Virus record (IMG/VR): IMGVR_UViG_2896589216_000003 | Source: a virus | Taxonomy: Duplodnaviria > Heunggongvirae > Uroviricota > Caudoviricetes | Direction: 5' to 3' (one strand) | DNA length: 32,297 bases | Shown here: positions 3,111-24,477 of the stretch, one piece after another | Position numbering within the stretch: position 1 is the stretch's first letter | Layout of the letters: each line of letters starts with the position of its first letter | Translations under genes and position numbers: made by a program | The notes under the pieces: model-generated | What the model was told of the DNA's origin: nothing | What the model saw: only the letters and a program-made list of their open reading frames with translations | Databases searched by the model: none

Positions 3111-4604
<1,494 letters not shown>

Positions 4605-4612
4605 CCACTTCA

Positions 4613-4783
4613 ACCGGCGATGGACTGTGTCTGCTGACCAAACGGCTGGAGCGCGGCCGCTTCGCCTGGCCGTCAGCCCGGGATGGCAAAGTGTTCCTCA
4701 CACCGGCACAGCTGGCGATGCTCCTTGAAGGTATCGACTGGCGGCAGCCTAAAAGACTGCTTACGTCCCTGACTATGTTGTAA
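4613..4783 (+). pseudogene. IS66-family tnpB, C-terminal fragment
   Basis: Begins directly at the IS911 right end with no start codon of its own. Confidence 0.7.
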
Positions 4784-4831
4784 GCCTCTTTATCCTGGTC
4801 GACGCTGAATGAGCCTGGTAATATACCCGGT

Positions 4832-6369: not shown

Positions 6370-6407
6370 CACATCCCCGTCAATACGGTTCTTGCTGCAC
6401 GCTTACC

Positions 6408-7304
6408 ATTGACGGGCGTGGTCTGGCTGGCGAGATCAGCAAGGAAACGGGTAAATCCCTGCGTGATAACGCTGAATACGTTAATCCCTGGGCGTCTCTG
6501 CATCGTGTTCAGCAATTCCGCTTCTTTGGTATTCCAGGGCGTCAGGCTTACCGTGAACTGCGGTTGTTGGCTGGTCAGGCGGCAAGGCAGCAGGGTGACA
6601 AAAAAGCAGGTGCGCCGGTACTGGATAACCCGCGCCTTGATGCCATCCTGGCTGCTGCTGATGCTGGCTGTTTTGCCACCTACATTATGAGGCAGGGCGG
6701 CGTGCTGGTTCCTCGCAAATATCACTTGATCAGAACCGCTTATGAAATCAATGAAGAGCCGACCGCCTATGGCGATCACGGTATTCGTATTTATGGCATC
6801 TGGTCACCCATTGCAGAAGGCAAGATCTGCACTCATGCAGTGAAGTGGAAAATGGTTCGTAAAGCCGTTGACGTTCAGGAGGCGGCAGCCGACCAGGGCG
6901 CTTGCGCCCCTTGGACTCGTGGCAATAACTGTCCCCTTGCTGAAAATTTGAACCAACAGGAGAAAGATAAATCAGCTGATGGGAACCCCAGAACGGACAT
7001 TACCAGCATGGATGACAAGGAGTTGCACGATTACCTGCACAGTATGAGCAAAAAAGAGCGCCGGGAACTGGCAGCAAGGTTACGCCTGGTGAAACCGAAA
7101 CGGCGTAAAGACTACAAACAGCGAATTACAGACCATCAGCGACTGCAGCTCGTGTATGAGCTGAAGTCCAGAGGATTTGATGGCAGCGAGAAAGAGGTCG
7201 ATTTACTCCTTCGCGGAGGCAGTATTCCGTCAGGAGCAGGCCTGCGTATCTTCTATCGGAACCAGCGTTTGCAGGAAGATGATCAGTGGCGGAACCTGTA
7301 TTAA
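6408..7304 (+). pseudogene. phage early-region protein, C-terminal fragment, 5'-truncated by the IS66-family element (by synteny probably the replication gene A-type protein)
   Basis: Reading frame is open from the IS end with no start codon; lies between the early region and the tum-like cassette. Identity not verified. Confidence 0.35.
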
Positions 7305-7387
7305 TTACGCGGGTTAACAATTCGTGCTCTTAATAATACCAGGCATATCAGGCTGATGAACGTAAAAAAACGTTTTACATCAGTAAG

Positions 7388-7396
7388 ATTATTATA
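7388..7396. repeat. 9-bp target-site duplication ATTATTATA, left copy, of IS1 copy 2
   Basis: Identical 9-mer at 8165-8173. Confidence 0.9.
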
Positions 7397-7411
7397 GGTA
7401 ATGACTCCAAC

Positions 7412-7915
7412 TCACTGATAGTGTTTTATGTTCAGATAATGCCCGATGACCTTGTCATGCAGCTCCACCGATTTTGAGAACGACAGTGACTTCCGTCCCA
7501 GCCTTGCCAGATGTTGTCTCAGATTCAGATTATGTCGCTCAATGCGCTGAGTGTAACGCTTGCTGATAACGTGCAGCTTTCCCTTCAGGCGTGATTCATA
7601 CAGCGGCCAGCCATCCGTCATCCATACCACGACCTCAAAGGCCGACAGCAGGCTCAGAAGACGCTCCAGTGTGGCCAGAGTGCGTTCACCGAAGACGTGC
7701 GCCACAACCGTCCTCCGTATCCTGTCATACGCGTAAAACAGCCAGCGCTGACGTGATTTAGCACCGACGTAGCCCCACTGTTCGTCCATTTCAGCGCAGA
7801 CAATCACATCACTGCCCGGTTGTATGCGCGAGGTTACCGACTGCGGCCTGAGTTTTTTAAGTGACGTAAAACCGTGTTGAGGCCAACGCCCATAATGCGT
7901 GCACTGGCGCGACAT
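7412..7915 (-). CDS. insB: IS1 InsB frame (variant isoform)
   Basis: Identical to the copy-3 InsB ORF. Confidence 0.9.
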
Positions 7916-8109
7916 CCGACGCCATTCATGGCCATATCAATGATTTTCTGGTGCGTACCGGGCTGAGAGGCGGTGTAAGTGAACTGTAGTTGCCATGTTT
8001 TACGGCAATGAGAGCAGAGATAGCGCTGATGTCCGGCAGTGCTTTTGCCGTTACGCACCACGCCTTCAGTAGCGGAGCAGGAAGGACATCTGATGGAAAT
8101 GGAAGCCAC
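7834..8109 (-). CDS. insA: IS1 InsA (variant isoform)
   Basis: [37 protein letters not shown]... Confidence 0.9.
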
Positions 8110-8164
8110 GCAAGCACCTTAAAATCACCATCATACACTAAATCAGTAAGTTGGCAGCATTACC

Positions 8165-8173
8165 ATTATTATA
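8165..8173. repeat. 9-bp target-site duplication ATTATTATA, right copy, of IS1 copy 2
   Basis: Matches 7388-7396. Confidence 0.9.
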
Positions 8174-8175
8174 TA

Positions 8176-8191
8176 CTGTAAATATAAACAG
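8176..8191 (+). promoter_or_regulatory. LexA (SOS) box CTGTAAATATAAACAG upstream of the tum/DinI-like cassette
   Basis: Matches CTGT-N8-ACAG with an AT-rich centre (20-mer TACTGTAAATATAAACAGTG); overlaps a -10-like TATAAA; 44 bp before the ATG at 8235. Confidence 0.6.
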
Positions 8192-8234
8192 TGGTTATGC
8201 ATGCAGTATTGCGTGTGGTGTCATAGGAGGAAAG

Positions 8235-8423
8235 ATGCAGGACTATTTTTTGGAGTCTTTGAAGCTCCAGCGCATTGATTTTTTTCTTAAGCTTGTAGCG
8301 GCTAGTGAGTGTAGTGATGAAGAGAAGGGGCTGGCTCTGCAGTGGGTTTCTGAATTGACTGATGAACTCATGGCAAAAATCAGAACCCACGAATACAACC
8401 GCTCAATGGATGTCATCAGCTGA
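8235..8423 (+). CDS. small protein, first gene of the SOS-controlled cassette (possible antirepressor N-part, Tum-like by position)
   Basis: ATG 8235 preceded by AGGAGG; 62 aa; the longer upstream start (8151) would overlap the IS1 end and LexA box. Confidence 0.5.
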   Translation: MQDYFLESLKLQRIDFFLKLVAASECSDEEKGLALQWVSELTDELMAKIRTHEYNRSMDVIS

Positions 8424-8433
8424 GGTGACTTTT

Positions 8434-8667
8434 ATGCGCATTGAAATAATGATCGATAAAGAGCAGAAGATTAGCCAGTCTACCCTGGACGCTCTTGAAT
8501 CCGAGCTTTACCGCAATCTGCGCCCTCTGTATCCCAAAACGGTAATTCGTATCCGCAAAGGTAGCTCTAACGGTGTGGAACTTACCGGATTGCAACTGGA
8601 CGAAGAAAGAAAACAAGTGATGAAAATTATGCAGAAGGTGTGGGAAGACGACAGCTGGCTGCATTAA
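8434..8667 (+). CDS. DinI-family protein (186 Tum C-domain-like)
   Basis: MRIEIMIDKEQKISQSTLDALESELYRNL...KQVMKIMQKVWEDDSW aligns with DinI (MRIEVTIAK...DALAGELSRR...ILQETWESADDW); RBS GAGG before ATG 8434. Confidence 0.75.
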   Translation: MRIEIMIDKEQKISQSTLDALESELYRNLRPLYPKTVIRIRKGSSNGVELTGLQLDEERKQVMKIMQKVWEDDSWLH

Positions 8668-8802
8668 GAAACGTTGCTGGCGTCTGAACTAGCTTCTGGC
8701 GTCAGCAAGGTTGAACAACGAGCCCTTGCGAGGCGTTAGCTCTGTAGTGCATGTCTATGCCGCATGAGATCGCATGATCGTTTGAGGATCGTTTTTGCTA
8801 AG

Positions 8803-8827
8803 GCCCGCCAGAACTGGCGGGCTTTTG
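8803..8827 (+). terminator. rho-independent terminator after the DinI-like gene
   Basis: GCCCGCCA-gaac-TGGCGGGC stem followed by TTTTG. Confidence 0.65.
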
Positions 8828-8889
8828 CGTAGATCATGCAGGTGCATGAAAACCACTACATAAAGCGGGCAGGCGTGGCGGGGATACGA

Positions 8890-8917
8890 TTGCGCGCTAG
8901 GTATAAGTGTGTAAAAT
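8890..8917 (+). promoter_or_regulatory. candidate sigma70 promoter for the ATPase/HNH module
   Basis: TTGCGC ... TG-adjacent TAAAAT about 40 bp upstream of ATG 8960; weak, by eye only. Confidence 0.25.
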
Positions 8918-8959
8918 AATTCCAAAATAAATCATCACTAATGAAGTGAGAGGGTAATA

Positions 8960-10609
8960 ATGTTAGTCAAGAAAAATAAAAATTATAGTTTATATTTTTT
9001 AATTACAAATAATCAACAGATATCTGATTCTGGTAATTATATAAAAATAGTCCCATCAAGAAGCGATTGGAATGATTTTGGATATTTGAGTAGAGTCGAA
9101 ATATCTATTTTTAATAAAAAAGAGTGTAAGGATATAATTTCACTGAATGGTTATATTGGTTTTTTGAATTCAGAGGAGGAACGAAATGGAAAAGCAGAAC
9201 TGATAAGGCGAGTGAAAAAAAAGGAAGAATCTAATTTAAAGGATGAGGGGTTTAATGATTATTTTGTCATGCTTCAGGATATGAATAATTATCGAAGACT
9301 AGTAAGATTTTTTGGGGTGAATGAATCCAAATATATATTAAATTTCATTAATGATGTTGTTTCTAAGAAAAGTGACGCTAGTGCAGAGAATTTGAGGAAA
9401 AAAGCAATCTCTTCTGATATCTTTAATAAATCTTTCATTAGAGAGTCTGAGTCGTATTTTACTTTCAAAAATGCAGGAACAGTTCTTTCCGGTATTCAAT
9501 ATGAGGAGTTGGGTAATTTATCACAGCACATCAAGATTAGCTATTCGAATAAAGTTAATGAAGAAGATGTATCTTATGTTTTTAATTTTGATCACGAGCA
9601 TGATTTACCAAAAAGAATTTCCATAATTATAGGCGAGAATGGTGTAGGAAAAAGCCAAACGCTTAGAGAAATCGCATTGGCTGCGATTAAAGGAAAGGAT
9701 AATTTGGTGGCTGTAGTTGATTCTAACGGTGTGAGCATTGAAGAACGAATTCAAATTAGTAGGCTCATTGCTTTTTCTCCAACAAATGAAAGTAAGTGTT
9801 CATTTCCAACCGATAAAAGAATAAAATCATTGATATGGTACAAAAGATTGACTTTAAATCGTGAATCAAAATCCAAATTAAACTTGAATGATTTAATAGT
9901 GCAACTAGCGAGGAGTAACGACGCTATCGGCTATAATCAAAGGTGGAATATATTTGTTGATGCACTGAGTGTTCTAAATAGTAACAACGATTTAGTAATC
10001 AAATGTGGCGGTGAAAATTCACCATTTGTTAAATTAAATGAGCTTAATTCTCGAGGCGAAGAATCTAGACTATCATTATATTCTGAAATTATTCTCTCTG
10101 GCGAGCCTTTGAGGCTTATTGAAAATAAATGTTACCCTTTGAGTAGTGGGGAAATATCGTTTATTAAGTTTTGTGTACAAGTTTGTTTGTATATTGAGAA
10201 TGGGACTCTTCTATTAATAGATGAGCCAGAAACACATCTCCATCCTTCATTTATTAATAAATTTATGGCATTGCTTGATAATTTATTAGAAAAGACAGGC
10301 TCTTCAGCTATCATAGCAACGCATTCGGTTTATCTTGTTCGGGAGGTTTTTAAGGAGCAAGTGACAATACTCAGAAGACGAGATGATGGGGTAATTGTTA
10401 GCGAAAAACCGAGATTGAGTACTTTTGGGGCGAATATAGGAAATATCTCATATTTTGTTTTCGGTGAGAGTGAACCAACTCAAATTTTAAATAAAGTAAA
10501 AAACAATATAATTGCAAAGAATATGTCTTGGGATGATGTTGAATCTAAATATAGCGAGGACTTATCACTTAATGTATTAACTGCGTTGAGAAATGAAATG
10601 GGCAATTGA
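8960..10609 (+). CDS. ABC/OLD-type (AAA_21-like) ATPase with about 215-aa N-terminal domain of unknown function; candidate defence protein
   Basis: 549 aa; Walker A GENGVGKS (aa 225-232), signature-like LSSGE (394-398), Walker B/D-loop LLLIDEPETHLHP (417-429), H-loop ATHS (453-456); RBS GAGAGGG; strongly AT-rich. Confidence 0.8.
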   Translation: MLVKKNKNYSLYFLITNNQQISDSGNYIKIVPSRSDWNDFGYLSRVEISIFNKKECKDIISLNGYIGFLNSEEERNGKAELIRRVKKKEESNLKDEGFNDYFVMLQDMNNYRRLVRFFGVNESKYILNFINDVVSKKSDASAENLRKKAISSDIFNKSFIRESESYFTFKNAGTVLSGIQYEELGNLSQHIKISYSNKVNEEDVSYVFNFDHEHDLPKRISIIIGENGVGKSQTLREIALAAIKGKDNLVAVVDSNGVSIEERIQISRLIAFSPTNESKCSFPTDKRIKSLIWYKRLTLNRESKSKLNLNDLIVQLARSNDAIGYNQRWNIFVDALSVLNSNNDLVIKCGGENSPFVKLNELNSRGEESRLSLYSEIILSGEPLRLIENKCYPLSSGEISFIKFCVQVCLYIENGTLLLIDEPETHLHPSFINKFMALLDNLLEKTGSSAIIATHSVYLVREVFKEQVTILRRRDDGVIVSEKPRLSTFGANIGNISYFVFGESEPTQILNKVKNNIIAKNMSWDDVESKYSEDLSLNVLTALRNEMGN

Positions 10610-11474
10610 AATGAATAAATTAAAAAGACCTGTTTTTAAAGATTATTCTGCATTTAAAAAACTATCTGCAAATAAGAGATTAAAACATCATTCTGTTCTG
10701 AATGGACAGGATACATTTATACTTAATGCATATAGATCGTACATAAAGAATAAAGGGTATCTTAATGTCAATTCTTGTGGCGTATTGAGTAACAATATTG
10801 CTGAAGCTTTGAGATATTATTATAACAATCCCGCAAAGTGTTTATCTATAATTGATGATATAAGAGCAGCTAATTCTAACTCTCTATGTCCAATGTGTGG
10901 TTCAATGCATAGCGGGACTTTGGATCATGTTTTACCCAAGGAAAACTATCCAGAATTTTCTTTATTCACTAAGAATTTGGTTCCTGCTTGCAAATGTAAT
11001 ACTTTCAAAAGTACTACTATAGCTAATTCTGCAGGCCATCGGATGCTGCATCCATATTTTGATAATATATTAAAACAAAGATTAATATGTGCTAATTTTT
11101 CTAAATTAGGGCGAACACCTACAATTGATGTAAAAATCATAATTGACCCAATGTCACCAGAATATAACAATGTTAAGTATCATCTTGATAATGTTGTTAT
11201 CAAGAATAATATTAAGGGGTATTTGTCTGAACAATGGGAGTCGTTTTACTTATATCCTGAGCTTGTTATTAGAGGACTGAATAAGAGTCTTTCTACTTAT
11301 AGCGATGTATATGAGTTGTTGACTCGCGAGTTGTTGCTGTTGGATGAAAAACATAAAGGTAAAAATAATTGGAATTCGGTTTTTGTAGCTGGGTTAATTC
11401 GACCTGATGTGATTAGGTGGATACTCTGTGAATTACATTTAGGTAACAGAAGTCCAGACGGTCGTCTCATATGA
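10593..11474 (+). CDS. HNH / His-Me-finger nuclease-like protein, partner of the ATPase
   Basis: CPMC-x8-DH-x20-CKCN ... H-x3-H (aa 99-153); overlaps the upstream gene by 17 nt (alternative in-frame ATG at 10611); same AT-rich composition. Confidence 0.7.
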   Translation: MKWAIEMNKLKRPVFKDYSAFKKLSANKRLKHHSVLNGQDTFILNAYRSYIKNKGYLNVNSCGVLSNNIAEALRYYYNNPAKCLSIIDDIRAANSNSLCPMCGSMHSGTLDHVLPKENYPEFSLFTKNLVPACKCNTFKSTTIANSAGHRMLHPYFDNILKQRLICANFSKLGRTPTIDVKIIIDPMSPEYNNVKYHLDNVVIKNNIKGYLSEQWESFYLYPELVIRGLNKSLSTYSDVYELLTRELLLLDEKHKGKNNWNSVFVAGLIRPDVIRWILCELHLGNRSPDGRLI

Positions 11475-11484
11475 TTTTTTGCAT

Positions 11485-11510
11485 CTTCAGCGTGTATCTG
11501 CACGCTGAAG
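11485..11510. repeat. perfect 10-bp inverted repeat (CTTCAGCGTG-tatctg-CACGCTGAAG) in the AT-rich spacer between the HNH gene and portal end; cos-proximal region
   Basis: Seen directly; T6 run upstream, A-rich downstream; not a canonical terminator in either direction. Confidence 0.4.
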
Positions 11511-11581
11511 AAATTCATAAAAACTGCTGCCTATTAATAAATTTTTTTAGCTGAGTTAAAGAACCTCATTTAGTGATTACG

Positions 11582-12615
11582 TTAAGTAGCTAGTTTATAA
11601 CTATCAAATTTAACAATGTTCTCACTTACCAATTTATTTATTTCCATCATTCTTTTTTGTAACGGTATTAACTCGTTACGTACAAACACCAGGCTCGCCT
11701 TCTCCACATCCCCAAACCCCCGACATTATTAGGCATAATCCCCATCATTTGCGGTGGCACACGATGCGCCGCCATCATGTCATCCCGGCTCACGTTCTTG
11801 ATGTTCAGAAACTCATCCTTCGCCGCGACTTCTGACAACGGGATGATCTGAAGCCCGTCCTTTTTGCCGTTAGGCGAGTACATAAACAGATTGCGGAAGT
11901 TACCTGGTCCTTTGGCGCTTTTCATCGCATTGCGGAGGTTGTTCACATCCTCCTGGTTTTGCGCGGCATCGGTCATGTACATGATGAAGCCTGCATGACT
12001 GCCGTTAATGTAATACTATCGGCGGAACAGCGTGGCGGACTCGTTGAGCAGGGCTGACGGAATGGCAGAAAGGTAACCTGGCAGGCCGTAGATCTCTTGG
12101 TTGATGTCCGGTTCCATCAGATGAAAGATGCTTCCTTTCGTGAACTGATACGGCTGCGTGGTCATGCCGTATTGCACAAACCAGTAGGTATCCAGGTCTA
12201 ATCCGCGTCGGGTGTATTTTGCCAGAGCAGGCTCAAGAGCGATGACCTCTCCGAACCGGTTTGTGCGTTTCTCCAGGTAAGCGTTACCAAATACCAGATA
12301 ATCCTGCACAAAACGTGAAAAAGCCTGCTGGCTGAGCAGCGGGTGAGGGATGTAGGTACTGATCAGAATGTTGCATTTCACCGCAATTGGTGAACTGTGA
12401 TGCACGGCGGCGCGGAAGGTGCGCGCCAGTCCGTCAAAACTCACTGGCGGCTCATACCAGCGATCTGTCTGTACGCATTCCACATAGTCCAGTAGTTCAC
12501 GGCGGTCCAGAACCGGAACGGGATCGCCGAAGCTGAATGCTTCGGCTGAAGTCTGGTTTTTATGCTGGGTCTGTTTCGTCGCCGCAGCGCGGTTCTTCTT
12601 ACTCTTTCCCATCAA
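11582..12615 (-). pseudogene. Q: portal protein (P2 gpQ-like) with in-frame TAG (12016-12018) and a 1-bp frameshift near 11714-11716
   Basis: N-part ...LNESATLFRR then TAG, continuing in the same frame (LYINGSHAGFIMY...); C-terminal ...PNNVGGLGMWRRR* shifts frame, the other frame gives GDVEKASLVFVRNELIPLQ... to stop at 11582. Confidence 0.8.
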
Positions 12616-14378
12616 AAAATCTCCACAATATTGCTGGTATTGGCGGACTCGCCCTGCAGCGGTTCGTTAAACAGTGCGTGCATTGTTGCCCAGGCCAGAT
12701 CGGCATGGCTGGCTTCTTCGCTGCGGCTGGCTTCATAGGTCGGGCGGTTGCCGCTGGCGGTGGTGGCGCGACGGATTGCCATGAATGACTGCGCAATGTC
12801 GGTGTGCCCGGCGTCAAACTCAAGACGGCGGTGGCTGATAATGTCGTAGGCCTTGAGTACCAGGGCGTTTTTAACGTTGGGGTTGTAGACAAACTCCCGG
12901 ACGGCAGGAAAAAACGCTTTCACGTTCTCGTAAACCCCGTGACCAACGCCGGTTGAGTCGATGCCGATATAGGTCACGTTGTACTGTTCAGTCAGTTTTT
13001 TGATGGCGTAAGCCTGGGCGCGAAAGTCCATTCCGCGCCACTGGTGACGCTCAAGAATGCGGAACTTACCGCCTGGCACGGCTGGCGGTGCCACCACCAC
13101 GCATCCGGCGCTGTCGCCGTTCTGCGTACCTTTTGCCGGGTCATAACCGATCCACACTTCGCGCCAGCCAAACGGGCGCAGGGCCAGTGCATGAAAGTCG
13201 GTCCAGACTTCCCAGCTGTCCACCATGCACGCCTGCAATTCGCTGAGCGGGAACACGGACGCGAGATCGTCCACGAACTCGCACATCAGCAGGTTCTGGT
13301 ATTCGTCAGGGCTGTACTCCATGCGCAACTGGTCAAGGTCGAACAGGTTACAGGCGCCGCGCACCGCATCTTCCACGGTGACTATCTGGCGGTATTGCCC
13401 GTCTGCGCACAGCAGGCCGGGGGCCAGATTGCTGTGGGACAGGTCGATGTCCACCTTGTCAGCTTTGTTGCGCCCACGGTTGAACAGCGCACCGGACCAG
13501 AACGGATAAGCACTGTGGGTCAGACTGGATGGTGTGGAAAAATAGGTCTGCCGCCATTTCTTGTGAATAGCCATACCAGAAGCCACTTTGCGTAGCTCCT
13601 GAAATTTCGGTATCCAGAAATATTCATCCAGATACAGGTTACCGTGATAACTCTGGGCAGTGCGGGCATTGGTGCCGAGGAAATACAGTGTGGCCCCGTT
13701 GGGAAGCACCATCGGATCGCCTTTCAGCTCCACCTCCACTTCTTTGGCAAAGTCGATGATGTACTGTTTGAAGACGTGGGCCTGTGCCTTACTGGCAGAA
13801 AGGAAAATCTGGTTACGTCCGGTAAGCAGGGCGTCAATCAGGGCTTCACGGGCAAAATAGAAGGTCGCGCCGATCTGGCGTGACTTCAGCAGGTTGCGGA
13901 TGCGGTTGGTTTTTCCGGCTTCCCACCAGTGGCGCTGGTAGTTGAACATGGAGGAATGGAAATTTTTTTCCAGCTTCTCAATCTGGTCATCGGTGAAAAC
14001 ATTCTTTTCAGGCTGACGGCGTGGGCCTTTGTTGCGGTTGGCGACGTTAGGGTTTAAGTCGGCTTCGTTGCCGCCATTGTTAAACTTGCCGATCCGCGCG
14101 TGGCGCTCAGACTGGCGCGCCAGCAGGTCAATATCTTTGAAATCTTTCCCTTCTTTGTGCTCCTTCATGATGAGCTGGCAGTAGCGTGCGGCGGTGGTGA
14201 GCTGCATCTGATCCAGAGGCCCATAGTCACCCCACTTGTCGCGTTTTTTCCAGCTGTAAACGGTTGCAACTTTCTCGCCCAGCATTTCAGCAATGCGGGC
14301 TACGCGGTATCCCTGAAAGTACAGCAGCATGGCCTGCCGACGGGGATCGAGATCTGCGGGTGTCAGTGTGGTGTTCAT
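12612..14378 (-). CDS. P: terminase large (ATPase) subunit, P2 gpP-like
   Basis: 588 aa, apparently intact; divergent from the O-N-M operon as in P2. Confidence 0.85.
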   Translation of the reverse strand: MNTTLTPADLDPRRQAMLLYFQGYRVARIAEMLGEKVATVYSWKKRDKWGDYGPLDQMQLTTAARYCQLIMKEHKEGKDFKDIDLLARQSERHARIGKFNNGGNEADLNPNVANRNKGPRRQPEKNVFTDDQIEKLEKNFHSSMFNYQRHWWEAGKTNRIRNLLKSRQIGATFYFAREALIDALLTGRNQIFLSASKAQAHVFKQYIIDFAKEVEVELKGDPMVLPNGATLYFLGTNARTAQSYHGNLYLDEYFWIPKFQELRKVASGMAIHKKWRQTYFSTPSSLTHSAYPFWSGALFNRGRNKADKVDIDLSHSNLAPGLLCADGQYRQIVTVEDAVRGACNLFDLDQLRMEYSPDEYQNLLMCEFVDDLASVFPLSELQACMVDSWEVWTDFHALALRPFGWREVWIGYDPAKGTQNGDSAGCVVVAPPAVPGGKFRILERHQWRGMDFRAQAYAIKKLTEQYNVTYIGIDSTGVGHGVYENVKAFFPAVREFVYNPNVKNALVLKAYDIISHRRLEFDAGHTDIAQSFMAIRRATTASGNRPTYEASRSEEASHADLAWATMHALFNEPLQGESANTSNIVEIF

Positions 14379-14424
14379 GGCACAAACCTACAGCCTTGAA
14401 TGAAGGCTTTCCCCGCCTGCGGTT

Positions 14425-14442
14425 TGTGTGGTTGTCGGTACA
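14425..14442. promoter_or_regulatory. Ogr-type late-promoter activator site TGT-N12-ACA in the P/O divergent control region
   Basis: TGTGTGGTTGTCGGTACA; centre about 87 bp upstream of the O start codon. Confidence 0.45.
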
Positions 14443-14520
14443 AATACCGCGCATTGTTTCACTGCCCCTATCACCGCAACCATAAGGCTCCAGTAAGTTT
14501 TTTCTAACGGAGCACGGCTC

Positions 14521-15354
14521 ATGACAGTGAAAGCAAAGCGTTTTCGCATCGGGGTGGAAGGTGCCACCACCGACGGACGCGAAATCCAGCGTGAATGGCT
14601 GGAACAGATGGCAGCCAGCTATAACCCGGCGGTGTATACCGCGCTGATTAACCTTGAGCACATCAAGTCTTATCTGCCGGACAGCACCTTTAACCGCTAC
14701 GGCAAGGTGACGGCGCTGTTTGCTGAAGAAATCACGGAAGGTCCGCTGGCAGGCAAGATGGCGCTGTATGCTGACGTTGAGCCAACGGAGTCCCTGGTGG
14801 AACTGGTGAAAAAAGGCCAGAAATTATTCACCTCTATGGAAGTCAGCCCGAAGTTCGCTGATACGGGCAAAGCCTACCTGGTCGGCCTGGCTGCCACTGA
14901 TGACCCTGCCAGTCTGGGCACTGAAATGCTGACATTCAGCGCCAGTGCAGCCCATAACCCGCTGGCAAACCGCAAGCAGAATCCCGCCAATCTCTTTACC
15001 GCCGCAGAGGAAACGGTGATCGAACTGGAAGAAGTCCAGGACGACAAACCGTCCCTGTTTGCCCGCGTCACGGCGCTGTTTACCAAAAAAGAGCAGTCCG
15101 ATGACGCCCGGTTCTCTGATGTGCATAAGGCCGTGGAGCTGGTCGCCACTGAGCAGCAGAACCTGAGCGCACGCACCGAAAAATCCCTGTCTGAGCAGGA
15201 AGAACGCCTGTCTGAGCTGGAGACTGCCCTGCAGGCACAGCAAACCGCCTTTAACGAACTGGTGGACAAGCTGAGTCATGAAGACAGCCGCCAGGACTAC
15301 CGCCAGCGTGCAACAGGCGGTAACGCCCCCGCTGACACTCTGACCAATTGCTGA
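14521..15354 (+). CDS. O: capsid scaffolding protein, P2 gpO-like
   Basis: 277 aa; first gene of the late head operon. Confidence 0.85.
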   Translation: MTVKAKRFRIGVEGATTDGREIQREWLEQMAASYNPAVYTALINLEHIKSYLPDSTFNRYGKVTALFAEEITEGPLAGKMALYADVEPTESLVELVKKGQKLFTSMEVSPKFADTGKAYLVGLAATDDPASLGTEMLTFSASAAHNPLANRKQNPANLFTAAEETVIELEEVQDDKPSLFARVTALFTKKEQSDDARFSDVHKAVELVATEQQNLSARTEKSLSEQEERLSELETALQAQQTAFNELVDKLSHEDSRQDYRQRATGGNAPADTLTNC

Positions 15355-15370
15355 TGGAGCACAAAACCTG

Positions 15371-16429
15371 ATGAAGAAGAATACCCGCTTTGCTTTTAAC
15401 GCTTACCTGCAGCAACTGGCGCGTCTGAACGGTGTGGCAGTTGAAGAACTGTCCAGCAAGTTCACCGTAGAGCCGTCCGTGCAGCAGACGCTGGAAGACC
15501 AGATCCAGCAGTCCGCCGCTTTCCTGACTCTGATTAACGTCACGCCAGTGACTGAGCAGTCCGGTCAGCTGCTGGGGTTGGGAGTTGGCAGCACCATTGC
15601 CGGAACCACTGATACCACTGCGAAAGAGCGTGAACCTGTCGATCCGACGCTGATGGTCGATGTGGAATATAAATGCGAGCAGACCAACTTTGACACGGTG
15701 CTGACCTACGCGAAGCTGGACCTGTGGGCGAAGTTTCAGGATTTTCAGGTGCGTATCCGTGACGCCATCGTGAAACGTCAGGCACTGGACCGCATCATGA
15801 TCGGCTTTAATGGCGTGAAGCGTGCGAAAACCTCCAACCGTAGCGAAAACCCGCTGCTGCAGGATGTGAATAAAGGCTGGCTGCAGAAAATCCGTGAGGA
15901 TGCACCGGATCACGTCATGGGCAGCACCACCACGGGCGGTGAAACCACACCGGGCGCAGTGAAAGTCGGGAAAGGTGGCGAATATGCCAACCTGGACGCC
16001 GTGGTGATGGATGCCGTCAATGAGCTTATCGACGTGGTCTACCAGGACGATGACGATCTGGTGGTGATTTGCGGTCGTGAACTGCTGTCTGACAAGTATT
16101 TCCCGCTGGTCAACAAAGAGCAGGAAAACAGTGAAAAACTGGCTGCCGATATGATCATCAGTCAGAAACGCATGGGTGGCCTGCAGGCCGTGCGTGCGCC
16201 GTTCTTCCCGCCGAATGCGCTGCTGATCACCCGTCTGGATAACCTGTCCATCTACTGGCAGGAAGACACCCGCCGCCGTTCAGTTATCGACAACCCGAAA
16301 CGTGACCGGATTGAAAACTTTGAATCCGTTAACGAAGCCTATGTGGTTGAGGACTACCGCTGCGCCGCACTGGTGGAAAACATCCAGATTAGTGATTTCA
16401 GCGCCGCCGCAGCCGAAACCGGAGCGTAA
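15371..16429 (+). CDS. N: major capsid protein, P2 gpN-like
   Basis: 352 aa; ...RFAFNAYLQQLARLNG...FTVEPSVQQTL... P2 N-type N-terminus. Confidence 0.9.
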   Translation: MKKNTRFAFNAYLQQLARLNGVAVEELSSKFTVEPSVQQTLEDQIQQSAAFLTLINVTPVTEQSGQLLGLGVGSTIAGTTDTTAKEREPVDPTLMVDVEYKCEQTNFDTVLTYAKLDLWAKFQDFQVRIRDAIVKRQALDRIMIGFNGVKRAKTSNRSENPLLQDVNKGWLQKIREDAPDHVMGSTTTGGETTPGAVKVGKGGEYANLDAVVMDAVNELIDVVYQDDDDLVVICGRELLSDKYFPLVNKEQENSEKLAADMIISQKRMGGLQAVRAPFFPPNALLITRLDNLSIYWQEDTRRRSVIDNPKRDRIENFESVNEAYVVEDYRCAALVENIQISDFSAAAAETGA

Positions 16430-16432
16430 TCC

Positions 16433-17083
16433 ATGAGCCTGAGTCCCGCACGGCAGCATCGCCTGCGCGTTCAGGCTGAACAGGCCGCCCGTGAGGGTGG
16501 CAGTGTTCGCCACGCATCGGGCTATGACCTGATGCTGCTGCAACTGGCGGAAGACCGCCGCCGTCTCAAGGGCGTTCAGTCCACGGTCAAAAAAGCGGAA
16601 ATCAAAGTGGAGCTGCTGCCGAAGTACGCCGCCTGGGCGGAGGGTGTCCTGGCTGCCGGAGGCGCTCAACAGGATGACGTGCTGATGTACGTGATGTTGT
16701 GGCGCATTGATGCCGGAGATTATGCCGGGGCGCTGGAGATCTGGCGTCATGCCCTGCGTCATGGATGGGTGATGCCGCTGGGCAACCGCAACGTGCAGAC
16801 CGTGCTGACAGAGGAAATGGCAGATGCAGCGCAGAGCGCAATGCTTGCCGCCACCGGCTTTGATGCCGATCTGTTGCTGCAGACGCTGGAGCTGACAGAC
16901 GGTCTGGATATGCCGGACCAGTCACGGGCACGTCTGCATAAAGCGATTGGCGCGGTCCTGAGTGAAAGCAATCCGGCTTCCGCCCTTAATCATCTCAACC
17001 ATGCGTTACAGCTCGATCCCCGCTGTGGCGTGAAAAAAGACAAACAGCAGCTGGAGCGCAGACTGCGCAATGACAGCCGCTGA
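16433..17083 (+). CDS. M: terminase small/endonuclease subunit, P2 gpM-like
   Basis: 216 aa; follows N as in P2. Confidence 0.75.
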   Translation: MSLSPARQHRLRVQAEQAAREGGSVRHASGYDLMLLQLAEDRRRLKGVQSTVKKAEIKVELLPKYAAWAEGVLAAGGAQQDDVLMYVMLWRIDAGDYAGALEIWRHALRHGWVMPLGNRNVQTVLTEEMADAAQSAMLAATGFDADLLLQTLELTDGLDMPDQSRARLHKAIGAVLSESNPASALNHLNHALQLDPRCGVKKDKQQLERRLRNDSR

Positions 17084-17178
17084 CAGAACGTGCCCCCGCG
17101 CACGGGCGGCACGGGGTGGCGAAAGGCACAGCCACATCAAAACCCCGTCCATCGCCCTTTATTTCAGGAGAAAGCAGC

Positions 17179-17625
17179 ATGAAGTTTGTTGCGCCAGAAC
17201 AGGCACCGGAACAGGCGGAAATCATTAGAAATACGCCGTTCTGGCCTGATGTGGACCTGTCGGAGTTTCGCAGTGTCATGCGCACTGACGGCACGGTGAC
17301 GCAGCCGCGTTTAAAGTAGGTTGCACTGTCGGCAATTTCGGAGGTTAACGCAGAGCTGTATGAATTTCGCAGACGCCAGCAGATGCTGGGGTATGCGTCG
17401 GAACAGCTGGACGGGAAAAGTGAGCGCATTCAGCACTATTTCAACGCGGTTTACTGCTGGGCTCGCGCCATGCTCAACGAACGTTTCCAGGACTATGACG
17501 CCACGGCATCCGGTGCGAAGCGGGGCGAAGAACTGGCGGAAGCAAGCGGTGATTTGTGGCGTGACGCCCGCTGGGCCATCAGCCGGGTGCAGGACGCGCC
17601 GCACTGCACAGTGGAGCTTATCTGA
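17179..17625 (+). pseudogene. L: head completion/stabilisation protein (P2 gpL-like) with in-frame TAG at 17317-17319
   Basis: ATG 17179 with AGGAG RBS; ...VTQPRLK then TAG then VALSAISEVNAELYEF... in the same frame, ending ...RDARWAISRVQDAPHCTVELI. Confidence 0.75.
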
Positions 17626-17828
17626 TGAAAGTGCGTGCGCATCAGTATGACACGGTGGACGCGCTTTGCTGGCGTCATTACGGGCGCACGCAGGGTGTCA
17701 CGGAGCAGGTACTGAAGGCAAATCCGGGGCTTGCCGAATACGGCCCCTTTGTACCTCACGGGCTGCAGGTGGAGCTGCCGGACATTCCGACCACCACCAC
17801 CGTGCAGACCGTCCAGCTATGGGACTGA
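17625..17828 (+). CDS. X: tail protein X, P2 gpX-like
   Basis: 67 aa; ...YGRTQGVTEQVLKANPGL... gpX-like. Confidence 0.8.
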   Translation: MKVRAHQYDTVDALCWRHYGRTQGVTEQVLKANPGLAEYGPFVPHGLQVELPDIPTTTTVQTVQLWD

Positions 17829-17831
17829 ATT

Positions 17832-18047
17832 ATGACGCTTGAGCGAATCAGCGCCTTTATCACGTATTGCATCGCCGTCGTGCTGGCCTGGCTGGGCGAT
17901 TTGTCCATCAAGGATGCCTCAACGCTGGGCGGCCTGATGATTGGTGTGCTGATGCTGGCTATCAACTGGTACTACAAACACAAAGCCTACCAGCTTCTGC
18001 GCGACGGGCAGATCTCGCGGGAGGACTATGAATCCATCAATCGTTAA
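17832..18047 (+). CDS. putative holin
   Basis: 71 aa, two hydrophobic segments and charged C-terminus; immediately upstream of the endolysin. Confidence 0.6.
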   Translation: MTLERISAFITYCIAVVLAWLGDLSIKDASTLGGLMIGVLMLAINWYYKHKAYQLLRDGQISREDYESINR

Positions 18048-18540
18048 ACGCTGCCTTGTCGGGGCCGTGCTGGCTATTGCTGCCACGCTGCCGGGTTTTC
18101 AGCAGCTTCACACCTCCGTGGAGGGACTGAAACTGATTGCCGATTACGAAGGTTGTCGTCTGCAGCCGTATCAGTGCAGCGCGGGTGTCTGGACCGACGG
18201 TATTGGTAATACGTCGGGCGTCATTCCCGGCAAAACCATTACGGAGCGACAGGCAGCAGAAGGGCTGATCTCCAACGTGCTGCGTGTGGAGCGGGCGCTT
18301 GAAAGGTGTGTGAAGCAACAGCCGCCGCAGAAGGTGTATGACGCTGCGGTGTCGTTTGCCTTCAACGTGGGTACGGGCAATGCCTGCAGTTCCACGCTGG
18401 TGAAATTGCTCAATCAGCGGCGCTGGGCGGATGCGTGCCGACAGTTGCCGCGCTGGGTTTATGTGAAAGGTGTTTTTAATCAGGGGCTGGATAACCGCCG
18501 TGCGCGGGAGATGGCCTGGTGTTTACAGGGAGCAAACTGA
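18028..18540 (+). CDS. K: endolysin (phage lysozyme, P2 gpK-like) with N-terminal signal-anchor (SAR-type)
   Basis: 170 aa; N-terminal LVGAVLAIAATLPGF; lysozyme-like core. Confidence 0.8.
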   Translation: MNPSIVKRCLVGAVLAIAATLPGFQQLHTSVEGLKLIADYEGCRLQPYQCSAGVWTDGIGNTSGVIPGKTITERQAAEGLISNVLRVERALERCVKQQPPQKVYDAAVSFAFNVGTGNACSSTLVKLLNQRRWADACRQLPRWVYVKGVFNQGLDNRRAREMAWCLQGAN

Positions 18541-18541
18541 A

Positions 18542-18919
18542 ATGAAAAAGAAATTAATCAGCGGGCTGTTTCTGATGTTATGGATGGCGCTGTTAATCGC
18601 AGCAATAGTGTATCCGCAGGGGATTTTTCCGGTACTGGCAGCGTCCGGCGTTTGGGTAGCCTGTTTACTGACATGGGCGGTAATTCCGGTAGCACTGGCT
18701 TCGTTAATTAAGAATGGCCCGCTCTGGCAGGAGTTGAGGGCATCTTTACTGAAGACAATTACCCGAAAAGAAAACGTATTTATCAGCTGGGTGATACGAT
18801 TGCTGATTGTCGTCAGTCTCGCCTGGACGGGGTGGGCCATTACCCTGGTCTTTTATCTGCTGACCGTTATTGCCTTCTGGATCACCCGTAATCAGATGGC
18901 GCAACAGGTAGCCGCATGA
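18542..18919 (+). CDS. lysA: LysA-like membrane protein (lysis timing)
   Basis: ATG 18542 (MKKKLISGLFLML...); four predicted transmembrane segments. Confidence 0.6.
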   Translation: MKKKLISGLFLMLWMALLIAAIVYPQGIFPVLAASGVWVACLLTWAVIPVALASLIKNGPLWQELRASLLKTITRKENVFISWVIRLLIVVSLAWTGWAITLVFYLLTVIAFWITRNQMAQQVAA

Positions 18920-19344
18920 ACCGGTTGCTGCTGGTTGTGCTGGCGTTATTATTGGCGGCGCTGGGCTGGCAGACGTGGCGGCTGGCTGATGCCAGCCAGA
19001 CCATCAGCACGCAGGCAGACGAGCTGCAGAGCAAAAGCCAGGCACTGGCAAAGAGCAACAGCCAGCTTATCAGCCTGTCCATTCTGACTGAAACCAATAA
19101 CCGGGAGCAGGCGCGGCTCTATGCCGAAGCAGAACAGACCAGTGTACTGCTGAGACAACGACAACGCCGGATTGAGGAACTGAAACGTGAGAACGAGGAT
19201 TTACGTCGCTGGGCTGATACTCCTTTGCCTGCTGACATTATCCGGCTGCGGGAACGTCCGGCACTCACCGGAGGTGCAGCTTACCGTCAGTGGTTGTCCG
19301 CGAGTGACGCCGTGTCGGCTGGAGCAGGCAGCGCCGCGCACTAA
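18916..19344 (+). CDS. lysB: LysB, Rz-like inner-membrane spanin
   Basis: 142 aa; N-terminal TM then coiled-coil-like region. Confidence 0.7.
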   Translation: MNRLLLVVLALLLAALGWQTWRLADASQTISTQADELQSKSQALAKSNSQLISLSILTETNNREQARLYAEAEQTSVLLRQRQRRIEELKRENEDLRRWADTPLPADIIRLRERPALTGGAAYRQWLSASDAVSAGAGSAAH

Positions 19345-19477
19345 CGGTGATCTGAATGCGTTGCTGGATGAAACGGAGGCCGCCTGGGCGGTCTGTGCAG
19401 ACAAAGTGGACATGATTATTGCGTGTCAGGAGCGAAATAGTGAACAAACCACAATCCCTGCGCCACGCCCTCAATAA
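19187..19477 (+). CDS. lysC: LysC, Rz1-like outer-membrane lipoprotein spanin, embedded in the +1 frame of lysB
   Basis: Lipobox LLTLSGC; overlaps the lysB 3' half. Confidence 0.65.
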   Translation: MRTRIYVAGLILLCLLTLSGCGNVRHSPEVQLTVSGCPRVTPCRLEQAAPRTNGDLNALLDETEAAWAVCADKVDMIIACQERNSEQTTIPAPRPQ

Positions 19478-19871
19478 AGCAGTGCCTTATGTCCGTAATA
19501 ACCCGGACAAACTGCATCTGTTTGTGGATAACGGTTCGCTGGTTGCCTCCGGGGCTAGCTCCATGTCATGGGAGTACCGCTACACCCTGAACGTGGTGAT
19601 TGAAGATTTCAGCGGCGACCAGAATCTGCTGATGGCCCCGGTTTTGCTGTGGCTGCGGGATAACCAGCCCGATGCGATCAATAACCCGGCGTTACGGGAA
19701 AAGCTATTCACCTTTGAGGTGGATATTCTGCGCAACGATGTCTGTGATATCAGCCTTAACCTGCAACTGACGGAGCGTGTGCTGGTCAGCACTGACGGCA
19801 GTGTGTCGAACGTTGAAGCGGTAGCGGAACCTGATGAACCTGAAGAAATGTGGACGGTGAAACGTGGCTGA
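19419..19871 (+). CDS. R: tail completion protein, P2 gpR-like (true start may be slightly downstream)
   Basis: ...LHLFVDNGSL...YRYTLNVVIEDFSGD...LLWLRDNQPD... Confidence 0.75.
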   Translation: MRVRSEIVNKPQSLRHALNKAVPYVRNNPDKLHLFVDNGSLVASGASSMSWEYRYTLNVVIEDFSGDQNLLMAPVLLWLRDNQPDAINNPALREKLFTFEVDILRNDVCDISLNLQLTERVLVSTDGSVSNVEAVAEPDEPEEMWTVKRG

Positions 19872-20265
19872 ATTGCAGAAGGTGGACGACTGGCTGAGTG
19901 CATTATTGGCGAATCTGGAGCCAGCCGCAAGAAGCCGCATGATGCGCCAGCTGGCGCAGGAACTGCGCCGGACACAGCAGCAGAATATCAGGATGCAGCG
20001 CAATCCAGATGGCAGCAGTTATGAGCCGCGCAGGGTAACAGCACGCAGCAAAAAGGGGCGCATCAAACGTCAGATGTTTACAAAGCTGCGCACCACAAAA
20101 TACCTGAAAACTGCAGCCAGCGCCGATTCTGCCAGCGTACAGTTTGAAGGTAGGGTGCAGCGCATTGCCCGTATTCACCATTACGGCTTGAGTGATCGCG
20201 TCAGTCGAAAAGGTATTTATACCATCTATGCGAAAAGGCAGTTATTAGGTTTTAATGTCCGGTAA
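19864..20265 (+). pseudogene. S: tail completion protein, P2 gpS-like, 3'-truncated by IS1 copy 3
   Basis: Stop codon TAA (20263-20265) is formed by IS1 terminal bases; ...YAKRQLLGFNVR*. Confidence 0.7.
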
Positions 20266-20315
20266 TGCTGCCAACTTACTGATTTAGTGTATGATGGTGA
20301 TTTTAAGGTGCTTGC

Positions 20316-20591
20316 GTGGCTTCCATTTCCATCAGATGTCCTTCCTGCTCCGCTATTGAAGGCGTGGTGCGTAACGGCAAAAGAACTGCCGGACATCAGC
20401 GCTATCTCTGCTCTCATTGCCGTAAAACATGGCAACTACAGTTCACTTACACCGCCTCTCAGCCCGGTACGCACCAGAAAATCATTGATATGGCCATGAA
20501 TGGCGTCGGATGTCGCGCCAGTGCACGCATTATGGGCGTTGGCCTCAACACGGTTTTACGTCACTTAAAAAACTCAGGCCGCAGTCGGTAA
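20316..20591 (+). CDS. insA: IS1 InsA (variant isoform)
   Basis: [37 protein letters not shown]... Confidence 0.9.
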
Positions 20592-21013
20592 CCTCGCGCA
20601 TACAACCGGGCAGTGATGTGATTGTCTGCGCTGAAATGGACGAACAGTGGGGCTACGTCGGTGCTAAATCACGTCAGCGCTGGCTGTTTTACGCGTATGA
20701 CAGGATACGGAGGACGGTTGTGGCGCACGTCTTCGGTGAACGCACTCTGGCCACACTGGAGCGTCTTCTGAGCCTGCTGTCGGCCTTTGAGGTCGTGGTA
20801 TGGATGACGGATGGCTGGCCGCTGTATGAATCACGCCTGAAGGGAAAGCTGCACGTTATCAGCAAGCGTTACACTCAGCGCATTGAGCGACATAATCTGA
20901 ATCTGAGACAACATCTGGCAAGGCTGGGACGGAAGTCACTGTCGTTCTCAAAATCGGTGGAGCTGCATGACAAGGTCATCGGGCATTATCTGAACATAAA
21001 ACACTATCAGTAA
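20510..21013 (+). CDS. insB: IS1 InsB frame (variant isoform)
   Basis: 167-aa ORF identical to that of copy 2. Confidence 0.9.
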
Positions 21014-21023
21014 GTTGGCAGCA

Positions 21024-21560
21024 TTACCATGCAGCCCTCACAATATAGTTAAAAGCGACATTTCGTGGGCGTGTTTCATTCGCACCTGCAGGTTTAGTCG
21101 TTGCCGCAACAACACCACCCTCTGTAATAGCCGGGTTGGGAATTGGGTAATTATCGAAGTCAATGGCCGGAGACAGGGGCGTGATTTGTTTTAAAATCGT
21201 GGTGCCTGTAAAACTTTCCAGAGTCTGGTCGTTAGTTCGTGAAGTCCAGATTCCCCAATAGTGGTTATGACTGACAATCGCACCGTCCTGAAGCGTTAAT
21301 AATCCCCTTCCGTTATCCACTCCACGTCCGTCATCCCAGCCACGAATAAACTCACCGCGTAAATCAGGCAATTTATTTGTCGGGTAAGCCTTTGCCAGTT
21401 CCGGGTATTCTTCAGCAGAAAAAGCCGCACCATTGCATTTCAGCCAGCCTGTCGGCGGAGTGGCTGAAGGCCACGGAACAGGCACACCAACAGGTAATGC
21501 AGAGCCTTCTCCCAAACCAACGTTTAAGAAAATGCAGAGATAATGGCTAACTGGCATCAT
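21024..21560 (-). pseudogene. tail-fibre variable C-terminal cassette (inverted-orientation segment of a Gin/Pin-type shufflon), truncated by IS1 copy 3
   Basis: ...PVGVPVPWPSATPPTGWLKCNGAAFSAEEYPELAKAYPTNKLPDLRGEFIRGWDDGRGVDNGRG... conserved tail-fibre junction motif; ORF begins at the crossover-like site and runs into the IS1 end. Confidence 0.65.
21507..21532. promoter_or_regulatory. gix/hix/cix-like 26-bp imperfect palindrome: candidate invertase crossover site
   Basis: TTCTCCCAAACCAACGTTTAAGAAAA resembles gix (TTATCCAAAACCTCGGTTTACAGGAA); sits at the 5' end of the tail-fibre cassette next to the invertase gene. Confidence 0.5.
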
Positions 21561-21587
21561 CCCAGGTTTTTATTCAGGGGATTGATC

Positions 21588-22154
21588 ATGCTTATTGGCT
21601 ATGTACGCGTGTCAACAAATGACCAGAACACCGATTTGCAACGTAATGCACTGAACTGCGCGGGATGTGAGCGGATTTTTGAGGATAAAATCAGTGGCAC
21701 TAAGCCCGACAGACCGGGGCTTAAAAAACTGCTCAGGACACTATCGGCAGGAGACACGCTGGTTGTCTGGAAGCTGGACAGACTGGGACGCAGTATGCGG
21801 CATCTTGTTACGCTGATAGAAGAGTTGCGCCAGCGTGGTGTGAATTTCCGAAGCCTGACTGACAGTATTGATACCAGTACCCCAATGGGCCGTTTCTTTT
21901 TTCACGTCATGGGGGCTCTGGCTGAAATGGAACGTGAACTGATAGTTGAACGTACCAGAGCAGGGCTGGCTGCAGCTCGTGCCAAAGGCAGAGTAGGTGG
22001 ACTCCGTCCTAAGTTGACCACCGAACAGTGGGCACAGATTGGACGTTTACTCGAGGCCGGAGAATCAAGACAGCGTATTGCACTGATTTTTGATGTGGGC
22101 GTTTCTACCATTTATAGAAAATTTCCGGCGAATGAGAGCAATGAATCGCCCTGA
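21588..22154 (+). CDS. serine DNA invertase (Gin/Hin/Pin/Cin family)
   Basis: MLIGYVRVSTNDQNTDLQRNAL...LVVWKLDRLGRSM...SLTDSIDTSTPMGRFFFHVMGALAEMERELI... near-identical in pattern to Gin. Confidence 0.9.
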   Translation: MLIGYVRVSTNDQNTDLQRNALNCAGCERIFEDKISGTKPDRPGLKKLLRTLSAGDTLVVWKLDRLGRSMRHLVTLIEELRQRGVNFRSLTDSIDTSTPMGRFFFHVMGALAEMERELIVERTRAGLAAARAKGRVGGLRPKLTTEQWAQIGRLLEAGESRQRIALIFDVGVSTIYRKFPANESNESP

Positions 22155-22202
22155 GTCAGTATTATTTTGATTTTTCCTGTAAGCGGACAAATACCGTCAT
22201 TT

Positions 22203-22220
22203 TGTGTGAATAACGACACA
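22203..22220. promoter_or_regulatory. Ogr-type late-promoter activator site TGT-N12-ACA upstream of FI
   Basis: TGTGTGAATAACGACACA; centre about 85 bp upstream of the FI start codon. Confidence 0.45.
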
Positions 22221-22296
22221 ACTGCGCTTAGCTGTTTGTCAGGCACAATCACTTCAACATAGGGCGAAGCCTAATCCAATCAGGAGGTTCGCCACT

Positions 22297-23469: not shown

Positions 23470-23478
23470 GGGGACAAC

Positions 23479-23994: not shown

Positions 23995-24048
23995 TGTATC
24001 TGAACGGCGCGGAATGCCGCGCCAGAACCTAATTTACAGGACAACAAA

Positions 24049-24351: not shown

Positions 24352-24477
24352 CGGTTGACGATCTGGTGGCTGATATCGCCACCATCTTTCACTGGCCGCC
24401 ATCCGTTACTGACGTTATGCCGCTGACCGAAGTGCTGGAATGGCGGGATAAAGCGATTCAGAGAAGCGGGGCCAGCC

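Follow-up and report, generated by a model that had tools for sequence, protein, structure and literature searches.

Inverted IS1 copies, a tail-gene deletion and a frozen fibre switch in a defective prophage of Shigella dysenteriae

Two near-identical copies of the insertion sequence (IS) IS1 lie in inverted orientation, 12.1 kb apart, in a 32,297-nt stretch of phage DNA (IMG/VR record IMGVR_UViG_2896589216_000003; this whole stretch is called the window below). Do they form a pair that flips or moves the DNA between them, or did each arrive on its own? Over the 20.6 kb and 17.3 kb compared, the window is 100% identical to CP026832.1, and CP026832 is the PacBio sequence of Shigella dysenteriae serotype 14 ATCC 49346 (PMC10132075). 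The window holds a defective P2/186-type prophage of S. dysenteriae, located between rcdA (ybjK) and ybjL. The account at which we arrive, and to which we assign a probability of about 0.9, is one of IS-driven decay, with an old deletion at the right-hand IS1 copy and a recent simple insertion of the left-hand one.

Two IS1 copies around a 12.1-kb segment

Elements of the IS1 family are about 768 bp long, have imperfect terminal inverted repeats of about 23 bp that start with GGT(G/A)ATG, and duplicate 8-9 bp of their target. Repeat finding located three of them in the window, each of 768 bp, at 2736-3503 (+, copy 1), 7397-8164 (-, copy 2), and 20261-21028 (+, copy 3). All three have the family length, ends of the GGTGATG/GGTAATG type, the reading frames for a 91-aa InsA and a 167-aa InsB, and the A6C frameshift motif TTAAAAAAC at IS1 positions 305-313. 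The IS1 product matches the Pfam families Zn_ribbon_InsA, HTH_Tnp_IS1, and DDE_Tnp_IS1.

The inverted arms are copies 2 and 3, with 768 nt each, 99% complementarity, and a spacer of 12,096 bp. Alignment of the two copies revealed differences at 6 of the 768 nt and a longest unbroken identity of 627 bp. The differences fall at IS1 coordinates 96 and 124 (insA), 752 (stop codon of insB, TGA versus TAA), and 759-761 (right terminal repeat). On translation, the InsB proteins are identical and the InsA proteins differ by T14I and S23R, that is, at 2 of 91 residues; insA, insB, and the ends are intact in both. Copy 1 differs from copies 2 and 3 at 69-73 positions (~91% identity), and its longest common identical run with either is 51-53 bp. 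A 768-nt repeat at 99% identity lies far beyond chance.

These results bear out the original prediction of two near-identical IS1 copies bracketing 12.1 kb in inverted orientation, with identical InsB, near-identical InsA, and both unlike copy 1. The same prediction called them variant copies. This holds in relation to the canonical copy 1, but the isoform is not unusual, as copies at least 99% identical to it occur in 3,866 E. coli records. With an isoform this common, the near-identity of any two such copies is to be expected.

As the reference we used an IS-free prophage of E. coli UPEC-245U (L001; other loci compared are numbered likewise), which also lies between rcdA and ybjL and which, in a megablast search of complete E. 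coli genomes, covers 100% of the bracketed segment at 99.6% identity. DNA identity between the window and this reference is 99.2-99.9%. Window 1-2586 corresponds to reference 8455-11028, window 6407-7396 to 15020-16009, window 8165-20260 to 16001-28115, and window 21507-31044 to 34578-44115, and window 21029-21523 matches reference 33227 down to 32733, in inverted orientation.

On the reference, the blocks to the left and right of copy 2 overlap by the 9 bp of 16001-16009, and these are the target duplication of this copy: ATTATTATA stands at 7388-7396 and again at 8165-8173, immediately on either side of the element. As the overlap of the mapped blocks equals the duplication, copy 2 is a simple insertion into otherwise undisturbed sequence. 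The reference and sister Shigella genomes have an empty site here, with a single ATTATTATA, in agreement with what had been proposed for this copy.

The deletion at copy 3 and the tail-fibre switch

Copy 3 has no target duplication. Its flanks, TTAATGTCC on the left and ATGCAGCCC on the right, are unrelated, because the element sits at the junction of a deletion. On its left, the tail-completion gene S (19864-20260, +) ends after codon 132 of 147 and runs into the IS1, which results in an open reading frame (ORF) of 133 aa. On its right lie 478 bp of the 3' end of H (21029-21506, -), which code for residues 350-513, the variable part of the protein, with a match to PF07484 Collar; this fragment is inverted with respect to the reference and is what remains of an invertible segment. 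The absence of a duplication, the truncation of S, and the adjoining fibre fragment had all been recognized in the original prediction.

In the reference, 28116-34577 codes for the 3' end of S, a DUF5677 gene on the opposite strand, V, W, J, I, H, and the tfa gene (G), and then for a second, alternative tfa and an alternative H C-terminus on the opposite strand; the serine invertase gene comes next. In the flipped isomer, the loss relative to the reference is a contiguous stretch of 5,984 bp, made up of the DNA from 28116 to the left crossover site and the flipped stretch from ~34577 back to 33228. It comprises the last 15 codons of S, the DUF5677 cargo gene, V, W, J, I, most of H, G, and the alternative fibre cassette. 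Thus, the genes that had been listed as missing (V, W, J, I, the constant part of H, and G) are indeed gone, and the deletion also took DUF5677 and the alternative fibre cassette. Nor have they moved elsewhere in the prophage, as a tblastn search with eleven reference proteins found none of V, W, J, I, G, DUF5677, and the alternative tfa in the window. It returned S 1-132, H 350-513 (-), the invertase, and residues 1-17 of the alternative H ORF, where this ORF spans the crossover site, and nothing more.

The orientation of the H fragment reveals in which state the segment was when this DNA was lost. The reference contains two 26-bp imperfect inverted repeats, one inside H (32724-32749) and one beside the invertase gene (34578-34603). 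They are of the type TTCTC..A.ACC...GT, which is typical of the Hin, Gin, Cin, and Pin sites. In the window, the inverted block stops exactly at such a 26-bp crossover site, and the sole one to survive there is TTCTCCCAAACCAACGTTTAAGAAAA at 21507-21532 (+). Since the inverted H fragment ends at this site, the deletion is contiguous only if the segment was flipped at the time, and we conclude that it occurred with a Hin/Gin-type segment in its flipped state.

The invertase gene is still present (21588-22154, +). It is an intact ORF for a serine DNA invertase of 188 aa, with Resolvase (PF00239) and HTH_7 (PF02796) domains, and the protein differs from that of the reference by one residue, R138L, in the motif GGRRPKL, which now reads GGLRPKL. 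By comparison with Hin and Gin, R138 is the minor-groove arginine. The leucine is found in every genome of the lineage that lacks the second crossover site, and the arginine is kept by L014, of the S. boydii lineage, and by the reference. This pattern is consistent with relaxed selection on the invertase once the switch had been destroyed.

The arrangement in the reference is like that of the Hin/Gin/Cin/Pin switches (the Mu G segment, the P1 C segment, and the e14 P segment), in that a serine invertase gene adjoins a segment with 26-bp inverted sites, alternative fibre C-termini, and tfa genes. The window, by contrast, lacks one of the sites and roughly three quarters of the segment, and its invertase carries R138L. 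Because the deletion took one of the two crossover sites, the switch in the window is frozen in the flipped state, and we regard it as a remnant of such a system rather than a functional member.

Ages of the two copies and the route of the deletion

The exact 133-aa product of the truncated S gene was found in 345 index blocks, including 16 contigs of more than 1 Mb (complete or near-complete genomes). Among the places listed for it, the junctions are identical and the surroundings follow the window collinearly. Window 9865-30265 has collinear counterparts at eight complete-genome loci, which share both junctions as well as an unusual right end of the IS1 (see below). The use of the H fragment and the sheath gene as anchors left this picture unchanged. 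Copy 3 is therefore old and common to a whole Shigella clade.

The distribution of copy 2 is the opposite one. Its site is occupied by an IS1 in 1 of the 20 contigs with the A-fragment ORF (13 of the 20 exceed 1 Mb), and the sole carrier is CP026832.1. Four genomes (L012, L016, L017, and L018) have the copy-3 junction and an empty copy-2 site, which places the deletion before the insertion. Copy 2 is thus recent and, in this census, private to ATCC 49346. It also lacks the five substitutions that are private to copy 3 (at 96, 124, and 759-761) and therefore derives not from copy 3 but from another IS1 in the genome. The two copies are not a matched pair and are unlikely to be a functional one, and their inverted arrangement is an accident of history.

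Three other origins of the arrangement can be judged on the same evidence. Near-identical IS copies that bracket a segment in inverted orientation are, as in systems such as IS26, the expected product of one replicative intramolecular transposition with inversion. Such a reaction would not leave copy 2 with its own direct 9-bp duplication on both sides, nor the 12.1-kb segment collinear with both of its flanks in the IS-free reference. Moreover, sister genomes carry copy 3 without copy 2, and copy 2 is free of the private substitutions of copy 3. The duplication, the collinearity with the reference, and the sister genomes refute this origin, and the probability left to it is practically nil.

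The second possibility is that the 13.6-kb unit bounded by the two IS1 copies is a composite transposon carrying a defence gene pair. IS1 composites occur with their IS copies in either orientation (direct in Tn9, inverted in Tn1681), and like them the window has two intact IS1 copies around cargo that includes the defence pair. It differs from them in having been built in situ by two events, with no sign of movement and no duplication around the whole unit (ATTATTATA on one side versus ATGCAGCCC on the other). Interior and flanks alike are collinear with one prophage, the IS1 copies arrived at different times, and no second location was found in E. coli genomes, where coverage of the segment reaches 80% or more in only 3 records. 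One of these (H1), which was inspected, is an IS-free prophage, and the annotation of the other two (H2 and H3) lists nothing but P2-type prophage genes. Arrival as a composite transposon is thus very improbable; the copy-2 duplication, the collinearity with the reference, and the sisters without copy 2 led us to rule it out.

Finally, copy 2 or the whole arrangement might be an assembly artefact of a repeat-rich genome, since copy 2 is present in only one assembly and Shigella genomes are rich in IS elements and hard to assemble. This assembly is, however, described as PacBio sequence, misassembly does not produce a perfect 9-bp duplication, which at an AT-rich target marks a real IS1 insertion, and the copy-3 junction recurs in many independent assemblies. 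We consider an artefact extremely unlikely.

That the inverted repeats are a substrate for recombinational inversion, as also predicted, is sound in principle: copies 2 and 3, which share 627 bp without a mismatch, are a potential substrate for RecA. There is no sign that inversion has occurred. The 12.1-kb segment is assembled in the ancestral orientation with respect to the reference, and look-ups anchored on the truncated S gene, the ATPase gene, the A fragment, and the H fragment, together with blast collinearity, yielded no inverted isomer of 8165-20260, a weak search because only one genome has both copies. Shigella is enriched in IS1 and prone to IS-linked inversions, with 103 of 114 reconstructed inversions falling on Shigella branches (PMC8072062). 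An inversion in this defunct prophage would have few evident effects other than changing the strand on which the defence pair and the LexA-box operon lie. We think it unlikely that the 13.6-kb unit is active here, be it by RecA-mediated flipping in a fraction of the cells or by Tn1681-like transposition. Were it so, transposition would take the defence pair (PDC-M01, Septu-like) and the LexA-controlled DinI-like operon to plasmids.

How, then, did the deletion at copy 3 arise? Missing target duplications usually stem from adjacent deletion or from recombination between IS copies (PMC11708052), and both routes have to be weighed here. For the first, an IS1 would have resided next to the DNA that was lost, at a time when the invertible fibre segment was in its flipped state. 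In an intramolecular transposition, the transposase would then have linked one end of this IS to a nearby target, and the intervening DNA would have been discarded. The loss runs from codon 133 of S across DUF5677, V, W, J, I, and the constant part of H to the H/G boundary in the flipped segment. This route would leave a single IS1 without a target duplication; the event also removed one crossover site and so froze the fibre switch. Later, and separately, an IS1 of the common isoform transposed, as copy 2, into an AT-rich 9-bp target just upstream of the LexA box of the tum/DinI-like operon.

We give this single-IS1 adjacent deletion slightly better than even odds, because it needs one prior insertion and not two within 6 kb. 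Deletions by IS1 in the gal region are said to have been described by Reif and Saedler, and replicative deletions, reportedly, by Turlan and Chandler. With IS1 adjacent deletions the window shares a lone intact IS1 at the junction, the lack of a duplication, and a local loss of several kilobases; it differs in that the event is a historical one that we reconstruct, with its parent allele not recovered.

The other route is RecA-dependent recombination between two direct IS1 copies, one in S and one at the flipped H/G boundary, to give one hybrid IS1. It predicts the same product, namely a single IS1 with no duplication and unrelated 9-mers on its flanks, and the position of the private substitutions of copy 3 near both ends (96 and 124; 759-761) would fit a mosaic. 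Shigella has IS1 in abundance (PMC8072062), and recombination between IS copies is a frequent cause of missing duplications (PMC11708052). It requires, however, that two independent IS1 insertions within 6 kb preceded the deletion, and neither single-insertion genome was found in the databases searched for the parent allele (below). We see this recombination as possible, if well short of even odds.

The right end of copy 3 might seem to bear on this choice. Its terminal repeat has the sequence of the left terminal repeat (IRL), with CAG and not AGT at 21018-21020, so that the last 23 nt of the element (21006-21028) are a perfect inverted match to its own left end (GGTAATGCTGCC... at both ends). 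The CAG change is found in all orthologous copies (L002-L009) and not in other copies of that isoform. Among 5,426 E. coli genomes, a 30-nt right end of the IRL type occurs at 7 places on 6 plasmids, where it rides on a 91%-divergent IS1 backbone (loci including L032, L033, and L035). In plasmids L032 and L035, the IRL-ended IS1 occupies one common locus with a normal 9-bp duplication, CATGTCAGC. We had considered the IRL-like end as the scar of a second, inverted IS1, and rejected this because the other backbone has it together with a normal duplication. It is therefore a functional polymorphism, uninformative about the deletion, and is not evidence of a second parent in a recombination either. 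Its presence on two backbones hints at recurrent conversion within the element that gives rise to perfect-ended IS1 variants.

Several points weigh against our account of decay, an old deletion, and a recent insertion. No parent allele, with an IS1 and its duplication at the S or the H/G site and the tail genes kept, was found in complete genomes, RefSeq E. coli, neighbours of the H fragment, species-representative genomes, or JGI metagenomes (0 matches). The latter two were scanned with exact junction patterns. With no intermediate, a one-IS deletion is inseparable from recombination of two direct IS1 copies. The census of copy 2 covers contigs with one exact 200-aa ORF and may miss other strains that have this copy, and inversion at low frequency in a culture cannot be assessed from an assembly.

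Enclosed genes and further decay of the prophage

Pfam, PADLOC, and the annotation of the reference agree with the contents originally proposed for the bracketed segment (an SOS cassette, a defence module, and head and lysis genes). A LexA-box-like sequence, TACTGTAAATATAAACAGTG (8174-8193, +), identified by the LexA consensus, abuts the copy-2 duplication. It is upstream of a 62-aa ORF and a DinI-like gene (PF06183 DinI; together 8235-8667, +), an analogue of the 186 tum region and the SOS cassette of the original prediction. The end of copy 2 puts TTACCA where the native GTAAGA stood, 17 nt upstream of a TATAAA (8183-8188), and a simple promoter scan detected no consensus promoter at the empty copy-2 site. 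A hybrid promoter formed by the IS1 end for the DinI-like operon is conceivable, and any effect of copy 2 on this operon is speculative.

The defence pair consists of an AAA ATPase (549 aa) and an HNH nuclease (293 aa) encoded at 8960-11474 (+). Their best PADLOC matches are PDC-M01A and PDC-M01B (E = 3e-55 and 1e-33, respectively), and the ATPase additionally matches Septu PtuA models. The pair is intact in most lineages amid decaying phage genes; the ATPase ORF is shorter in L009/L028 and in L030 (418 and 507 aa, respectively). A defence pair that outlasts its phage fits the already familiar idea that host-useful cargo survives.

Relatives of the prophage have lost their tail genes as well. 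The IS911-type insertion and the portal nonsense mutation are common to the window and the S. boydii Sb227 lineage (L015, CP000036.1). Three loci, L013, L015, and L020 (about 21390), have a different IS1 junction at reference position 28185, which is 23 bp past an intact S gene. In L014, an IS1 (14576-15343) joins reference positions 21371 and 33731; its fibre segment is in the unflipped state, and the deletion extends from the terminase gene through to the fibre-assembly gene. The right junction in the S. boydii clade is known from L014 alone, as anchoring on the sheath protein returned the window's own lineage. DNA that each lineage has kept is deleted in the other, so the two tail-gene deletions are independent of each other. 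The loss of the tail module would thus have been parallel in sister lineages and would have struck an already defective prophage. In CP026840.1 (L019/L025), an IS1 of the same isoform lies between the DinI-like gene and the defence ATPase gene (L019 9137-9904). It carries an 8-bp duplication, AGCGGGCA, and is a separate insertion, so this region has been struck repeatedly.

In what has been reported on the IS-driven decay of Shigella prophages and genomes (PMC8072062; Hawkey et al. 2020, as cited therein), nothing differs substantively from this picture: IS1, IS3-family, and IS66-family elements insert and delete, pseudogenes accumulate, and lineages carry different IS deletions. The phenomenon is already known and amounts to textbook IS-mediated prophage erosion, of which the window is one specific and apparently undescribed instance that matters little beyond annotation. 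It offers a clean and datable example of IS1 dismantling a Shigella prophage, with a clade-wide deletion, a frozen switch, and a strain-private insertion, and illustrates how an intact relative can account for a target duplication that is lacking. What we add is the exact content of the deletion, the flipped state in which the fibre switch is frozen, the order in which the copies arrived, and the conclusion that they are unlikely to be a functional pair. As short-read contigs break at copies 2 and 3, the locus also calls for caution in assembly and in typing schemes for S. dysenteriae and S. boydii.

The rest of the window bears further marks of this decay. It has the P2/186-type (Peduovirinae) gene order Q-P / O-N-M-L-X-lysis-R-S ... 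FI-FII-E-T-U-D-ogr, with Pfam domains of the P2 family. The set of essential genes is not intact, with lesions in int, A, Q, L, and T in addition to the deletion from S to G. The portal gene Q (11582-12612, -) is a pseudogene with a nonsense mutation at 12018 and a 1-nt deletion at 11717. It is followed at 12612-19871 by terminase P (-) and by O, N, M, L, X, holin, lysozyme, LysA, LysB/C, and R (+), among which L is a pseudogene with Q47* at 17317 and an 18-nt deletion (17399). The genes for sheath FI, tube FII, E/E', tape measure T, U, D, and ogr (22297-29443, +) form the right-hand end of the prophage, beyond which ybjL follows, and T has frameshifts at 25001 and 26476.

In the early region, an IS911-type element of the IS3 family (2587-4609, +; Pfam rve/HTH_Tnp_1) replaces the 3' part of cII, fil, and the genes following; the name IS911 rests on the OrfA sequence. 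The canonical-type IS1 copy 1 sits in its orfA, flanked by the 9-bp duplication CACGGTGGC. Relative to the reference, the region from cII to dam is lost at this insertion. A 5'-truncated IS66-family element (4610-6406, +) lies inside the replication gene A, its interior fused to the right end of the IS911-type element at 4610-4612. Compared with the sister locus L012, this fusion reflects an additional, strain-specific deletion of 2,739 bp, which took dam, the N-terminal part of A, and the left end of the IS66-family element, and which looks like an IS911-adjacent deletion.

At the left end, int carries W208* at 431 with respect to the reference. A small YdcA-like gene adjoining the CI repressor gene has, again relative to the reference, a 12-nt insertion, AAAGAGCATGAT, at 1393-1404. 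Its product has 67 aa in the window, not 63 aa, and both lengths are found among the Shigella loci.

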